DNA from: a bacterium
GTDB lineage: Bacteria > UBA8248
Assembly: GCA_965221165.1 (NCBI GenBank)
Contig: CBDCRP010000002.1
Span: 480,001 to 544,000 of the forward strand
Reading direction: 5' to 3'
DNA length: 64,000 nucleotides
This document shows, piece by piece, positions 17,850 to 27,132 of this stretch. Under the pieces are notes generated by a model, which searched no databases, was not told the DNA's origin, and saw only the letters and a program-made list of their open reading frames with translations. How positions within the stretch are numbered: position 1 is the stretch's first letter; every line of letters starts with the position of its first letter. The position numbers and the translations under genes were made by a program.

Positions 17850-18150
17850 CCCGTCGTGGGGAAAACGGGCGGACTCTGCGACGGGACGAGAGTCGGGGGA
17901 GAATCCTCGGAGGGCTATCCCCCGACTCTCACCAAAATAGGGTTTCAGGAAATTTTCTTGTTGCGGGGGAAACGGGCGGACTCTGCAGCAAGACCGGGGG
18001 CCGGGGATAATACACCTCGGGGGTTGAGTTTCCGGCCCCCACTTAAATTCAATGGTGATTTTCTGCTGCGGGGGAAACGGGCGGACTCTGCGGCAGGCCG
18101 AGAGCCGATGGAGCCTCCTAGTGGGAGTCTTCATCGGCTCTCCCTTTTTC
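17850..18150 (+). ncRNA. Tandem array of three ~105-bp two-hairpin units (candidate structured RNA)
   Basis: Conserved core GGGG(A/G)AAACGGGCGGACTCTGC three times inside different but self-complementary stems; each is followed by a second hairpin; the last ends in a T-run. Confidence 0.6.
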
Positions 18151-18159
18151 GGTAGTGTC

Positions 18160-19035
18160 TCACTTTGAAATCTTCTTCTTGTAAGGGCCACGCGGACCCG
18201 GCTTCGGTTCCCGCGCTTCAATGAGTTCGAGTATCCAGTTCATATCGCGCAATTCAGAATCAAGGCCAGCGGCCATCGCTGGCGTAACCCGCAAACTTTT
18301 GTGGATGCGGCAAAAGTTATAGTGCACGAAATACAACGATAGCATGTGGATATGATTCTCAAGTTTCTTCGAGAAGCCATTCGTTAGACGAGTGAAACGG
18401 CGCATACACATTCTCATGGTGAGGTTTTGTCTTTCAGCGTAGCTGGTGGAGATATGCGCCGGATCGGCCATTCCGGTTACCATCGACATTCGAGTTCCAA
18501 TACATTCAGAAGGGCTGTATCTCCCATCCTTCTCTGATTGACCATATAGCTTCACTAGCATGGCGTAATCAACATCATCCCCAAAGGCATCTTCAACCGC
18601 GTCAAGATATGCCTTGTGGCCGTCTGTGGTCACCTGAACGCGGTTTGCGAGTCTTTCCTTTACATCGGCCATGAACTCATTCGCATAGCCGCTATCACGA
18701 CCGCCTACGAGATAAGAGACAATCAGTTTGCTATCGGCATCTAAAGCCGTCCACGTCCACACGTCACCCGCATCTTCCGGTGCGGCTTCGGCAGTCGCCA
18801 CGTTCTTTTGCTTCGCATAGACAAACGACCATATCTCATCGCACTGGATTCTCTTTGACTTCACATTGCGAACTTGGTGGTCGTGAAATTCTGCGCAAGC
18901 CTCTCCCGCTTTGATGAGCAGTTTCGTCACAGTGTTGATGGACGCGCCCGTTACGCGGGAGATTGCCCGCATGGACATTCCCTCGATAAGAAGGTTGAGT
19001 ATTTGGATTCTTTTATCTGTGTGTAATTTGTTCAT
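18160..19035 (-). CDS. IS1-family DDE transposase (single ORF)
   Basis: HTH (GMSMRAISRVTGASINTV), IQCDEIWSFV, TTDG, ERQNLTMR, RFTRLTNGFSKK; stop codon inside IR. Confidence 0.9.
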   Translation of the reverse strand: MNKLHTDKRIQILNLLIEGMSMRAISRVTGASINTVTKLLIKAGEACAEFHDHQVRNVKSKRIQCDEIWSFVYAKQKNVATAEAAPEDAGDVWTWTALDADSKLIVSYLVGGRDSGYANEFMADVKERLANRVQVTTDGHKAYLDAVEDAFGDDVDYAMLVKLYGQSEKDGRYSPSECIGTRMSMVTGMADPAHISTSYAERQNLTMRMCMRRFTRLTNGFSKKLENHIHMLSLYFVHYNFCRIHKSLRVTPAMAAGLDSELRDMNWILELIEAREPKPGPRGPYKKKISK

Positions 19036-19041
19036 ACATAT

Positions 19042-19070
19042 AATATATGAACTTTATTGCTTAGTGTCAA
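19042..19070 (-). promoter_or_regulatory. Consensus sigma70 promoter of the transposase (probably leaderless mRNA)
   Basis: TTGACA-17bp-TATATT on - strand ending 6 bp before the ATG; no SD. Confidence 0.6.
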
Positions 19071-19080
19071 GTGCAAAGTG

Positions 19081-19344
19081 CTACTCTTTGGAAAAAACTT
19101 CCGAATTAAATGGAGTCAGGTTTTTCCATTTGCGGTCATCGCTTTTTAACCACTCTTCATCATAGTGGTAGACACGACTTTTGTGGTGCCCACATATTAT
19201 TTCTACCGCCGACGAATCGCCTGCTTCTAGCTTTTCTGCATTCTCTTCATCTGTGATGAAATATCCAGTCTCGTTCTCATCTAAAATCACTCCCACGAAA
19301 ACATCATCGAAAGCGCATCTGACGATTACCTTTTCTCCACGCAT
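19081..19344 (-). CDS. Hypothetical IS passenger protein (87 aa)
   Basis: GGAGA RBS, acidic, directly upstream of the transposase. Confidence 0.55.
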   Translation of the reverse strand: MRGEKVIVRCAFDDVFVGVILDENETGYFITDEENAEKLEAGDSSAVEIICGHHKSRVYHYDEEWLKSDDRKWKNLTPFNSEVFSKE

Positions 19345-19516
19345 CTCAAATCTCCATTTGGGCGAGGTTCAAACCTTGCCCATTCTACCAGTGCCACAAA
19401 GTAGATTCAAAAAAAGTCTAATTTTTACGATTTATGGTATTGACTCTATGGCACATACCGTTAATATCTATCAGATGTTAATGGTAATGGCACAACTCTA
19501 ATGTGAGGAATTTAAT

Positions 19517-20212
19517 ATGAGCGACGAAGCCGGATCCAAAACACCCGCCCCGCCATATTTGGCGTTCATTACTTTTCTGGGATTCATAGAGTCGATGGCG
19601 ACCATTGGTCTCCCGCATCAGATCGACAAGAGCATCATGAAAAATATGTCTGGCGCAAATCAAAATTGGACGCTTAGTTGCCTGAAATATCTCAAACTGA
19701 CCTCAGAAGGAAATAGGCCTACAGATAAATTCAAACAACTCGTTTCGGTGGATGGCGAAAACAGAAAAGAACTGATGAAGGATATCATAATCAACGCATA
19801 TCCTTTCATATTCAGCGCAGAAGGATTTGATATTAAGACCGCTACGGAAAAACTACTTAATGAGCAATTTGACAGTACAGGGGTGGTAGGCGATACGAAA
19901 AAAAAATCTGTCAGATTCTTCATGAATGCGGTGAAGCATGTAGGTATAGAAATTTCGCCTTATCTGGATCAAATGAAACTCCGAGCCAGGACACCCACAA
20001 AAAACAAAAAAACAAAACGTCCTCTAGGAACCAATGGAAATAACAAGACGAAAGATAAAGAGCCACAAGAGCCGCCAGAAAAGGAGAAAGACACATCCTC
20101 CGACAGTAATTTCAATCAATCTCTCCTAGACAAGATTCCTCCGTTCAATCCTGAATGGACTGAGGAAACTTTGATTAAGTGGCTGGATACAATTAGCAAA
20201 CTGAAAGGGTAA
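19517..20212 (+). CDS. DUF5343-like IS passenger protein
   Basis: PPY…P..ID…LKYLKL..GNRPT N-terminal pattern typical of DUF5343; GAGGA RBS; TTGACT-16-TAATAT promoter at 19440-19467. Confidence 0.6.
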   Translation: MSDEAGSKTPAPPYLAFITFLGFIESMATIGLPHQIDKSIMKNMSGANQNWTLSCLKYLKLTSEGNRPTDKFKQLVSVDGENRKELMKDIIINAYPFIFSAEGFDIKTATEKLLNEQFDSTGVVGDTKKKSVRFFMNAVKHVGIEISPYLDQMKLRARTPTKNKKTKRPLGTNGNNKTKDKEPQEPPEKEKDTSSDSNFNQSLLDKIPPFNPEWTEETLIKWLDTISKLKG

Positions 20213-20217
20213 AAACA

Positions 20218-20246
20218 CCCCCTGATGGAGGTAAGCCATCAGGGGG
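20218..20246. terminator. Strong 11-bp hairpin between the DUF5343-like gene and the tRNA-like genes
   Basis: CCCCCTGATGG-aggtaag-CCATCAGGGGG; T-run follows on the - strand. Confidence 0.6.
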
Positions 20247-20255
20247 GGATGAAAC

Positions 20256-20331
20256 GGCCCCGTCGCCAAGTGGTTAAGGCGCGCCTCTGGCAAGAGCGTA
20301 TACGCCGGTTCGATTCCGGTCGGGGCCTCCA
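20256..20331 (+). tRNA. Irregular tRNA: Cys-like body, GGC (Ala) anticodon
   Basis: 76-nt cloverleaf: acceptor GGCCCCG/CGGGGCC, U73, CCA; D-arm GCCAAGTGGTTAAGGC; loop CT-GGC-AA; C30-A40 mismatch. Confidence 0.75.
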
Positions 20332-20344
20332 AATGAGATTGAGT

Positions 20345-20417
20345 GGGGGGTGTGGATGGTTCCCAGGTCAGGACTTAGGCCCCCGTCCTTGGGGTTCGAT
20401 TCCCCAACCCTCCACCA
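20345..20417 (+). ncRNA. tRNA-like RNA with alanyl acceptor (G3:U70, A73) and aberrant D/anticodon arms
   Basis: Acceptor GGGGGGT/ACCCTCC-ACCA; T-arm TGGGG-TTCGATT-CCCCA; mini D-arm GGA-TGGT-TCC; AGGAC/GTCCT arm with 10-nt loop. Confidence 0.65.
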
Positions 20418-20423
20418 ATCTCA

Positions 20424-20648
20424 TTACTTCGATGTTCCTTTGTTCCACCGCGAATTTGCGGCTTTTTGTGCAATCTCTTTTCGTCTTTCAGGTGATAGCT
20501 TTTCTGCGCGGGCACGTCCGCCCGATCTGCCAAGTATCTGCCCAGCGGTCTGAGTCTCCACAACTTCACCCACCGCAATCTTGGCTACATTGACTGCGCA
20601 CCCTACCACATCACCGGGTCTTTTCTGTCCTTGTGGGCCAGTAGCCAT
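20424..20648 (-). CDS. Small basic protein typical of IS1-like cargo elements
   Basis: GQKRPGDV…GGRARAEKLSPERRKEIAQKAANSRW motif; next to the right IR. Confidence 0.75.
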   Translation of the reverse strand: MATGPQGQKRPGDVVGCAVNVAKIAVGEVVETQTAGQILGRSGGRARAEKLSPERRKEIAQKAANSRWNKGTSK

Positions 20649-20775
20649 GTCGAAAATTCCTTTTATGCAATGACGACTATTATCGTCACACGACGATTAT
20701 TGTTGCAACCCCTTTCGAAGTCAAGGGAAAATGGAGGGCGATAAATTTCAAAGTGAGACACTACCCCTTTTTCAC

Positions 20776-20804
20776 TTGACACCCGATGCTCCTTCACCTA
20801 CCTT
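20776..20804 (+). promoter_or_regulatory. Promoter of tRNA-Ala
   Basis: TTGACA-17bp-TACCTT upstream of the tRNA. Confidence 0.6.
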
Positions 20805-20818
20805 CAAGTTCCTTTTGT

Positions 20819-20894
20819 GGGGGTGTAGCTCAGATGGGAGAGCGCGTGGATCGCACCCACGAGGTCAGGGGTTCGAATCCCCTCACCTCCACCA
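20819..20894 (+). tRNA. tRNA-Ala(CGC)
   Basis: Canonical cloverleaf, G3:U70, anticodon loop AT-CGC-AC, TTCGAAT, ACCA end. Confidence 0.95.
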
Positions 20895-25897: not shown

Positions 25898-27006
25898 TTA
25901 TGCACCAGGGGTCAGATTCACTAACAAAGCACCGTCTTTTCGAGCCACAAACGTATCGTGCGCCTCTTGATATTCCTTGAGGGGGAAACGATGGGTGATG
26001 TATGGATCCACTTCCATTCTCCCGGCATGAATGAGCGATAAAACCTCATCTCCACAATTAGGATTCGCTCGAACACCAAAAATATCCATTTCCTCAAGCA
26101 CAACGCGTTTCCATGCCAAATCATGGATGTTGTCCGGTATGCCGGTAATGGCGACACGCGCGCCTTTTCCGCCACAATCCACACTCCACTTGAAACTATC
26201 CGTGGTTCCCGCCGTCTCCAGCACCACGTTGGCTTTCCTTCCGCCAGTCATCTCATTAATCCGTTCTGGCACACCCCCGTCTCGGTAACTGACGACTTCA
26301 GCACCTTGTTCCTCCAAAATTTCGAGTCTCTTGCCGCCTCCCACAACAATAATGCGGCCTGCGCCCATCGCCTTGGCTGATTCATAGGCGAAAACACCTA
26401 TGGGACCCGAACCCAATATCACGACCGTATCGCCGGGGTTGATGCCTGGGCGCTTCGCTGTCCAGAGACCACAAACAGCCGGGTCCACGGCTGAACCATA
26501 CTCGAAAGACATGCCTTCCGGCATCTTGTGCAGCGCACGTATATTGTTGGTCACATACTCCGCATATGAACATATGAACCTTGCGTGATATGCCCATATT
26601 GCCTGTGGCCAGTGACTGTATTTCCATAATTATAGCAGAGGTTATAGCGGCCGATGAAGCACATGCGGCAAGCGCCGCACCCTGCGTGGCTCGTACCCGC
26701 CACGGAATCACCCATCTCCAGACCGAACCCCTCGGTCATCGGACCCATTGCGACGATTCTGCCAGACCACTCATGCCCTAAAATGGACGGAAGTTTAGGC
26801 GGCCAGCGGGGAAGATGGCCCCCTTTGATGATTTCAATGTCCGTACCACAAATCGTGGTACACTCTACTTTGACAAGCACTTCTCCAATATCCGGCTCAG
26901 GAACAGGAACAGACTGAATTTCTAGCTCTTCGGGCGCGGTCATTACAACCGCTTCCATGTTATCCCCTATCTCTTCGCCATAACGCACTTCGAATTGTGA
27001 GGACAT
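25898..27006 (-). pseudogene. Zn-dependent MDR alcohol dehydrogenase, frameshifted
   Basis: ICGTD, GHEWSG, CGACRMC in the 5' part; GSGPIG Rossmann motif in the 3' part; 8-bp duplication CATATGAA at 26563-26578 shifts the frame. Confidence 0.88.
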
Positions 27007-27132
27007 AAAACTTACACTCTCCTTCAATTTGCTGCTGCTTGACGATCAGTTTTGGAATGAATGCCAGGTTCTCGCAAATCCATTACAACACCTTCCCACA
27101 AGCTGGGCAGTGATGAACGATAGTTTATCGCA

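Follow-up and report, generated by a model that had tools for sequence, protein, structure and literature searches.

The window, a stretch of 64,000 nucleotides of bacterial DNA whose first letter is position 1, contains two tRNA genes according to ARAGORN: 20256-20331 (+), labelled tRNA-Ala with anticodon ggc at position 34, and 20819-20894, labelled tRNA-Ala with anticodon cgc. Both were recovered with the Rfam tRNA model, at 51.7 bits and 64.7 bits respectively (gathering score 29). The first gene encodes a well-formed 76-nt cloverleaf possessing a tRNA-Cys-type body and GGC in the anticodon slot, and is referred to below as the odd tRNA. It is present in a single genomic copy and is the cargo of a 2,615-bp IS1-like transposon (18151-20765), not a host tRNA. 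The element and its borders comprise the following features.

18143-18150: left copy of the target-site duplication CCTTTTTC, 8 bp, the same bases as after the right repeat
18151-18171 (+): left terminal inverted repeat, 21 nt, 100% complementary to 20745-20765
18160-19035 (-): IS1/IS1595-like DDE transposase, 291 aa (Pfam DDE_Tnp_IS1 5e-6, plus HTH)
19081-19344 (-): 87-aa ORF upstream of the transposase, which may not be a gene (ORF list)
19517-20212 (+): DUF5343 passenger gene, 231 aa, directly upstream of the odd tRNA (Pfam DUF5343 3e-6)
20218-20246 (-): terminator-like 11-bp hairpin followed by a T-run (consensus scan only)
20256-20331 (+): odd Cys-bodied tRNA, loop CUGGCAA, U73, CCA (ARAGORN, Rfam, fold and alignment)
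20345-20417 (+): tRNA-like element, 73 nt, with an alanine-type acceptor (tRNA-Sec model 25.4 bits, below gathering)
20424-20648 (-): p74, a small basic protein convergent with the RNA genes (ORF list; homologs in related elements)
20448-20461 (+): terminator-like hairpin and T-run after both RNA genes (consensus scan only)
20745-20765 (-): right terminal inverted repeat, 21 nt, a perfect pair with the left repeat
20766-20773: right copy of the target-site duplication CCTTTTTC, 8 bp, the same as the left copy

Comparison of the two ends revealed a perfect 21-nt inverted repeat, GGTAGTGTCTCACTTTGAAAT, at 18151-18171 and 20745-20765, with the eight bases CCTTTTTC abutting both repeats on the outer side. 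In the sister species G005 the site is empty and the flanks are joined through one CCTTTTTC, so that a DDE transposase, inverted repeats, a target duplication and an empty site in a relative, as expected of an IS1/IS1595-like transposon, are all present. The insertion is recent and left 53 bases between the element and the host tRNA-Ala(CGC) downstream of it. The right flank was found in 23 of 23 genomes of the genus, indicating that the flanks are native to the genus despite the lower G+C of the surrounding 20 kb; the idea that this lower-GC stretch is a foreign island accounting for the tRNA was ruled out on that ground. On the left, three hairpin-forming repeats of ~73 nt, spaced ~105 nt apart (17858-18142), lie between a class II ribonucleotide reductase gene and the transposon, and G005 has them too.

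The transposase gene is single copy in the genome, and its homologs, 41-63% identical, are located in related elements. It scores 68 bits with the NCBIfam IS1 model, under the cut-off of 100, and placement in IS1/IS1595 is approximate because the NCBIfam scores fall under the family cut-offs. Like known IS1/IS1595 elements with passengers, this one combines a DDE transposase bearing an N-terminal HTH with short inverted repeats and an 8-bp duplication; unlike their typical cargo, its own consists of two small RNA genes and DUF5343. The 87-aa ORF at 19081-19344 matched no Pfam and no PHROG family. The DUF5343 gene gave a weak PADLOC match to PDC-M34A (1.3e-4), and a related element in G048 carries a transposase and a DUF5343 homolog (38% identical) without a tRNA. 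DUF5343 was considered as a partner of the tRNA and rejected, its homologs occurring in 3 of 50 other genomes of the phylum with no tRNA adjoining any of them. A remnant of a related element, consisting of a p74 pseudogene with two in-frame stops that adjoins a lone copy of the inverted repeat (2 mismatches), was noted at G000:C2:776428-776690.

The odd tRNA reads GGCCCCG-UC-GCCA-AGUGGUUA-AGGC-G-CGCCU-CUGGCAA-GAGCG-UAUAC-GCCGG-UUCGAUU-CCGGU-CGGGGCC-U-CCA. Its acceptor stem has G1-C72, G2-C71 and C3-G70, followed by the discriminator U73 and an encoded CCA, and its D-arm, GCCAAGTGGTTAAGGC, leaves A13 and A22 unpaired. This Cys-type D-arm (GCCAAG.GGUAAGGC) is shared, minus one D-loop base, with the host tRNA-Cys(GCA) at G000:C2:839665-839739, and it also agrees with 27 ordinary tRNA-Cys genes of Bryobacterales-order genomes, which belong to another phylum. 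Among 49 host tRNAs the closest to the odd tRNA is tRNA-Cys at 74%, narrowly ahead of tRNA-Asp at 72%. The sequence-only reading, which was made from the letters without database searches, had described a 76-nt Cys-bodied cloverleaf with these three acceptor pairs, U73 and a Cys D-arm, and had placed GGC in the standard-register anticodon without G3:U70; the first description was borne out by direct reading and by the Rfam score, the second by the ARAGORN call at position 34, the loop CUGGCAA and C3-G70.

As far as the available part of the source goes, AlaRS requires G3:U70, and the major determinants of CysRS are U73 and GCA, minihelices needing U73 alone (PMC9976931). All three host tRNA-Ala genes (CGC at 20819-20894, GGC and UGC) possess G3:U70 and A73, vs C3-G70 and U73 in the odd tRNA, which has U73 as in canonical tRNA-Cys and GGC at 34-36, with GCA at 35-37 instead of 34-36. 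Judged by these identity rules, the tRNA-Ala label given to 20256-20331 by automated annotation is wrong, and the gene is a real hybrid of a Cys body and an Ala slot that, by the G3:U70 rule, is predicted to be no AlaRS substrate. The odd tRNA derives from tRNA-Cys and stands outside the host decoding set.

Contigs from runs X1 and X2, which may be the source sample, span 19500-20837 with 0 differences, and the sequence of the odd tRNA is therefore not an assembly slip. Among the sequencing runs listed for the locus there was no RNA run. Diverged versions of the tRNA region were recovered from run X3 (a 983-nt contig covering 19500-20378, with 27 differences and 4 gaps) and run X4 (a 177-nt contig covering 20225-20403, with 23 differences and 4 gaps). 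One contig each of X1 and X2 skips 171 bases at window positions 20568-20740, which removes most of the 5' part of p74 and its promoter-like site; the shorter side of this junction is 23 letters, and the skip may be spurious.

Searches of the 22 further genomes of the genus and of 50 further genomes of the phylum gave no homolog of the odd tRNA. Cys-bodied tRNAs with GGC or AGC do occur in four genomes of the order Bryobacterales (Acidobacteriota), G058, G102, G176 and G218. A scan limited to a single genome of each species, with a pattern of the Cys D-arm and then YTGGCAA, matched once, in the Bryobacterales MAG G058, whose odd tRNA has the loop CUGGCAA, is preceded by an IS1595 transposase and is followed after 8 nt by an allo-tRNA(UAU) (54 bits with the tRNA-Sec model). 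When the G058 locus was compared by BLAST with 301 genomes of the order, 26 of the 29 loci examined contained ordinary tRNA-Cys(GCA), 27 genes in all, and the search also brought up Cys-bodied tRNAs in G176 and G218, which ARAGORN calls Ala(agc) and which have the loop CCAGCAA; these two were recovered without any loop condition. A pattern with both spacings matched 6 of the 301 genomes, namely the four already named, among them G102 with the loop CCGGCAA (ggc), and two with an in-register tRNA-Cys. At L136 and L137 (G325 and G234) lie tRNA-Cys genes with in-register GCA in which G33 replaces U33; their anticodon stem has 6 bp and their variable loop 3-4 nt. Three patterns run against the viral collection yielded 0 matches, as did the first pattern against the metagenome collection. 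A looser pattern retrieved 28 metagenome loci; just two of them, L019 and L022, are tRNAs and have the 8-nt loop CUGGCAAA, seven are duplicates of a 5' half that precede a normal tRNA-Cys, and the remainder are non-tRNA. The acceptor of L022 is defective, and L019, on a contig with coverage ~1, may reflect a sequencing error.

The G176 locus shows that the kinship extends to the carrier. Its element ends in GGTAGTGTCTCAGTTTGAA, with 1 mismatch to the repeat of the window, is bordered by the 8-bp duplication CGGCAGCG and encodes a transposase 58.5% identical to that of the window, and within it a Fic/DOC gene runs into the odd tRNA, which is followed after 20 nt by a convergent p74 homolog. The Fic/DOC-family passenger gene (L104 3496-4683) has its TAG stop inside bases 8-10 of the tRNA, and 5' processing of the tRNA would consequently strip the stop codon from the Fic/DOC mRNA. 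In G218 the order is an uncharacterised 154-aa gene, the odd tRNA and a convergent p74 homolog. The arrangement of passenger gene, tRNA and convergent p74 recurs in 3 of 5 loci, with a different passenger in each. The transposase family itself is present in 111 of 301 Bryobacterales-order genomes (E<=1e-20; the tally includes the unpublished genome G276), and among 30 related transposase loci examined within 1.5 kb, tRNAs were found near two, those of G176 and G061. The odd tRNA is thus an occasional cargo of the transposon family and not a core part, and it is dispensable for transposition, as it follows from the two cases in 30. The tRNA of G061 (L122 3679-3757) is also mis-wired, with a GCU (serine) anticodon and A73 on a class I body without the long variable arm.

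The irregularity of the odd tRNAs is confined to the anticodon arm. Across the five odd tRNAs and two ordinary tRNA-Cys, 105 of 105 base-pair cells in the acceptor, D and T stems are standard, and five pairs show compensatory change on both sides. In the standard register the stem beneath the CUGGCAA loop of the window gene contains the mismatch C30/A40 and the wobble U31/G39. Folded in isolation, the arm is thermodynamically most stable (-6.5 kcal/mol) with the CUC/GAG pairing that the sequence-only reading had proposed, a bulged C and the loop UGGCAA. The arm of G102 forms a 6-bp stem with the loop CGGCAA, the arms of G176 and G218 have the stem slid by one base around CCAGCAA, and the anticodon stem of G058 is weak in every register. 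In all five (window gene, G058, G102, G176, G218) a single unpaired A separates GCA from the 3' strand, so that, counted from the 3' stack, the slot is RGC and GCA occupies 35-37. The GCA displaced by +1 that had been proposed for the window gene would accordingly be a conserved feature of the loop, judging from the alignment of its relatives.

How much weight this NGCA pattern can bear is limited by non-independent sampling and by pattern bias. G058 and G102 cannot count towards its recurrence, because the patterns by which they were found demanded GGCA/RGCAA. Among the members found without a loop condition (window gene, G176, G218 and the CGC and GGA types in the accessible part of the catalogue of Mukai et al., described below), three first bases keep G35-C36-A37 and one type does not. 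The combination of a Cys body with an alanine-box anticodon is, by sequence comparison, a recurrent design and not an accident. The sequence-only reading had named as its refuting case that homologs mostly have GCA and that this copy is a one-off decayed tRNA-Cys; the relatives, including those in the available supplement, have GGC, AGC or CGC followed by A37 instead of an in-register GCA, and that case was not borne out.

A rare class of RNA to which the window gene belongs has been catalogued before. Mukai et al. 2017 (Nucleic Acids Res 45:2776, PMC5389517), in the parts of the article and supplement available, describe polycistrons of allo-tRNA-like and other irregular tRNAs (tRNA0, tRNA1 and tRNA2), which come from metatranscriptomes of forest and peat and lie close to toxin-antitoxin genes and transposons. 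The accessible supplement lists 'tRNA0 (7/5, U73)' with a Cys-type body and the loop CUCGCAG (anticodon CGC, with G35-C36-A37), a second tRNA0 type with the same Cys-type body and the loop CCGGAAA (GGA, without GCA), and a U73 'E-loop tRNA1' with AGC, GGC, UGC or GCU, and several tRNA0 are flagged 'pseudo' in its table (PMC5389517). The available main text mentions tRNA0 once, without a cysteine-like label or a reported test (PMC5389517). The presence of tRNA0 with the same body in that supplement assigns the window gene to this class, to the extent that the listed sequences represent it.

Compared by eye with these listed sequences, the odd tRNA shares the 7/5 cloverleaf, U73 and the same Cys-type acceptor and D-arm, an anticodon mismatched to the body (GGC here; CGC or GGA in tRNA0), an adjoining second irregular tRNA-like gene and a link to transposons, tRNA0 having a toxin-antitoxin link as well; the G058 homolog also has the T arm GCCUG UUCGACU CAGGU of the tRNA0 sequences given. 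Unlike the acidobacterial tRNA0 entries seen there, the window gene has a host in another phylum, an encoded CCA and a carrier transposon delimited to the base, and its partner RNA is an alanine-type tRNA-like element, vs an allo-tRNA in the tRNA0 polycistrons. The G-1 tRNA1, which is His-type with GGU and has GUG at 35-37, shows the same displacement of the cognate triplet by one base with a foreign anticodon in the slot; it differs in identity (His, vs Cys here) and in that charging and decoding assays exist for it. According to the available text, it was charged by E. coli HisRS without His insertion at ACC, and allo-tRNAs from similar loci put Ser at Leu codons in E. coli (PMC5389517). The odd tRNA is like the allo-tRNAs (8/4, 9/3) in its mis-wired anticodon, its occurrence in soil bacteria and its IS association, and unlike them in having the standard 7/5 branch and no long variable arm.

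A further parallel is tRNA-ProX of Streptomyces and Kitasatospora, which combines the body of one amino acid with the anticodon of another, alanine included, and which, in the part of the source available, has a dedicated synthetase paralog, ProRSx, and A33, whereas the odd tRNA has U33 and one canonical CysRS to rely on (PMC11415595). The earlier analogy with Streptomyces tRNA-ProA fails at one point, the enzyme, the genome having no second CysRS. A genome-wide PF01406 search returned one CysRS, carrying DALR_2 and CysS_C domains, the remaining matches being weak and in other class I enzymes, and no synthetase gene was found within the transposon by domain search or in the ORF list. The earlier interpretation as a whole was right about the hybrid and had overlooked both the transposon that carries it and its prior listing as tRNA0 (7/5, U73) in the supplement as available (PMC5389517). 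The roles that it had proposed, mistranslation, shifted reading and an uncharged decoy, are candidate roles.

In the literature searched, no paper dealt with a GGC anticodon on a Cys body, with tRNAs of this kind carried by IS elements or with Cys-at-Ala tRNAs; supplementary figures S5-S7 of Mukai et al., which depict the polycistrons, may already comment on tRNA0. New here are the exact transposon and its relatives in another phylum, the cassette of tRNA and p74, and the interpretation of the class as cysteine-type; the finding is genuine and is more than a decayed copy, but it is of an already catalogued kind. It shows that mis-wired tRNAs like those from acidobacterial metatranscriptomes ride precisely delimited IS elements and reach other phyla. 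Geometrically, their design can be read simply as a one-base shift of the cognate triplet, which the available text proposed earlier for the His-type tRNA.

The tRNA-like RNA at 20345-20417 begins 13 nt after the odd tRNA, and a terminator-like site follows both; the two might be transcribed together, as in the polycistrons that tRNA0 heads. The acceptor of the tRNA-like RNA has 7 bp, including G3:U70, with A73 and CCA, the T arm is canonical, and no convincing anticodon arm can be recognised; pairing of the flanks continues past the acceptor stem, and RNAalifold yielded no consistent structure for the centre. It is not allo-type, scoring 25.4 bits with the tRNA-Sec model vs the gathering score of 47. 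A covariance model built from two copies detected this RNA (70-73 nt) in 6 of 51 genomes of the phylum, further copies lying at L003 1504-1576 (-), at L004 and L006 1504-1573 (-), and at L072 and L073, and its copies in G006 and G008 are chromosomal and syntenic. At 33 acidobacterial loci, model R1 detected no such element nearby. In G003 the tRNA-like RNA is followed after 7 nt by a class-II tRNA (L003 1406-1493 (-) = G003:C110; 88 nt, A73) with the amber-reading anticodon CUA, and a type III restriction-modification system adjoins.

The 74-aa basic ORF p74 (20424-20648, -) has a promoter-like site at 20724-20696 by consensus scan and matched no Pfam family. In the Atlas, the closest clusters carry the automatic name 'RNA-binding protein' at 0.93, which is a lead only. 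Homologs of p74 adjoin the odd tRNA tail-to-tail in G176 and G218 and lie beside 15 of the 30 related transposases (loci examined within 1.5 kb). Consisting of a tRNA, a small protein and a transposon, the system is compact and lends itself to questions about charging, decoding and the benefit to a jumping gene.

The account that we prefer, with a probability of about one half for the whole, is that the odd tRNA is an irregular tRNA of a mobile element, charged by CysRS, facing alanine codons and acting as a weak or caged decoder. Its descriptive part alone, comprising the anatomy, the transposon, the empty site, the related elements and the recurrent Cys body with NGC and A37, is held with great confidence. 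The single canonical CysRS would charge the odd tRNA with cysteine, perhaps poorly, via U73 and the off-register GCA, and AlaRS would leave it uncharged, since G3:U70 is absent. On the ribosome the 3'-stacked GGC triplet would face GCC/GCU codons. The defective anticodon stem-loop (a C/A mismatch and a G/U closing pair, or a 6-nt loop and a bulge) probably keeps decoding weak or conditional, and binding by p74 perhaps contributes; weak decoding is what the His-type analogue would predict. The RNA would serve the element and not general translation, with Ala-to-Cys substitution low-level at most.

CysRS reads G34-C35-A36 with a dedicated domain, and a one-base shift may for that reason abolish charging. 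As far as the sequences can tell, the NGCA pattern may equally reflect selection to be recognised by CysRS or to read alanine codons: a constant G35-C36-A37 with a variable N34 is equally expected from alanine-box decoding, so that CysRS recognition is not singled out. A bolder version of the account is a long shot. It would have IS1-like transposons across phyla carrying a purpose-built adaptor in which N-G-C-A suits CysRS at 35-37 and the ribosome at 34-36, and which, once freed from p74, puts Cys at Ala codons as a mobile, switchable module for mistranslation or addiction.

A doubtful reading, though one with substance, makes the odd tRNA an active missense adaptor, charged with Cys and inserting it efficiently at GCC/GCU as deliberate, transposon-encoded mistranslation. 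The recurrence of a Cys body with GGC, AGC and, in the supplement as available, CGC fits it, as do the fully maintained cloverleaf and the Ser inserted at Leu codons by the allo-tRNAs of similar loci (PMC5389517, in part). Efficient decoding is hard to reconcile with an anticodon stem that is irregular in every member, with C33 in place of U33 in two members (ARAGORN register) and with the failure of the His-type analogue of the same shifted design to decode in the assays reported in the available text (PMC5389517); the host's own tRNA-Ala(GGC) would compete, and there is no dedicated synthetase.

It is improbable that the gene is a decaying copy of tRNA-Cys, a functionless hitch-hiker on the transposon, although it is unique in the sampled genomes of genus and phylum, tRNA cargo occurs in just 2 of 30 related elements and some tRNA0 in the part of the Mukai table available are labelled 'pseudo' (PMC5389517). 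The odd tRNAs also diverge more than ordinary tRNA-Cys, the window gene being at most 78% identical to any other odd member while ordinary tRNA-Cys of two phyla are 87% alike, a difference that, as a comparison of sequences, would also fit relaxed constraint. Decay is opposed by the intactness of all conserved tertiary bases and of three of the four stems, with compensatory changes across members, by the same loop design in elements whose transposases are only 58% identical, and by the recovery of class members from metatranscriptomes in the source as available (PMC5389517).

A shifted or four-base register, with GCA or GGCA as the anticodon, would have the RNA read UGC as a tRNA-Cys or suppress +1 frameshifts at UGCC, which we regard as very improbable. 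The best-fold 6-nt loops, U-G-GCA-A in the window and C-G-GCA-A in G102, put two bases before GCA on its 5' side, the normal loop arrangement, and the loops of L019 and L022 are truly 8 nt long. An 8-nt loop characterises the known frameshift suppressors, and the arm of the odd tRNA is the normal 17 nt, with predicted loops of 7 or 6 nt, not the 18 nt that an 8-nt loop entails; of the two metagenome tRNAs, one may be an error and the other has the acceptor defect. That the gene is an ordinary tRNA-Ala(GGC), as the ARAGORN label has it, is hardly credible given C3-G70, U73 and the Cys-type D-arm, vs G3:U70 and A73 in every host tRNA-Ala.

Two observations lie apart from the odd tRNA. The tRNA-Pro(ggg) that ARAGORN reports at G000:C3:722482-722558, its anticodon placed at position 32, is without normal tRNA features and is probably a false call. 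In the window, a zinc alcohol dehydrogenase at 25898-27027 (-) is divided between two ORFs that overlap by 4 bases, with ADH_N in 26551-27027 and ADH_zinc_N in 25898-26554, and may be frameshifted or broken.
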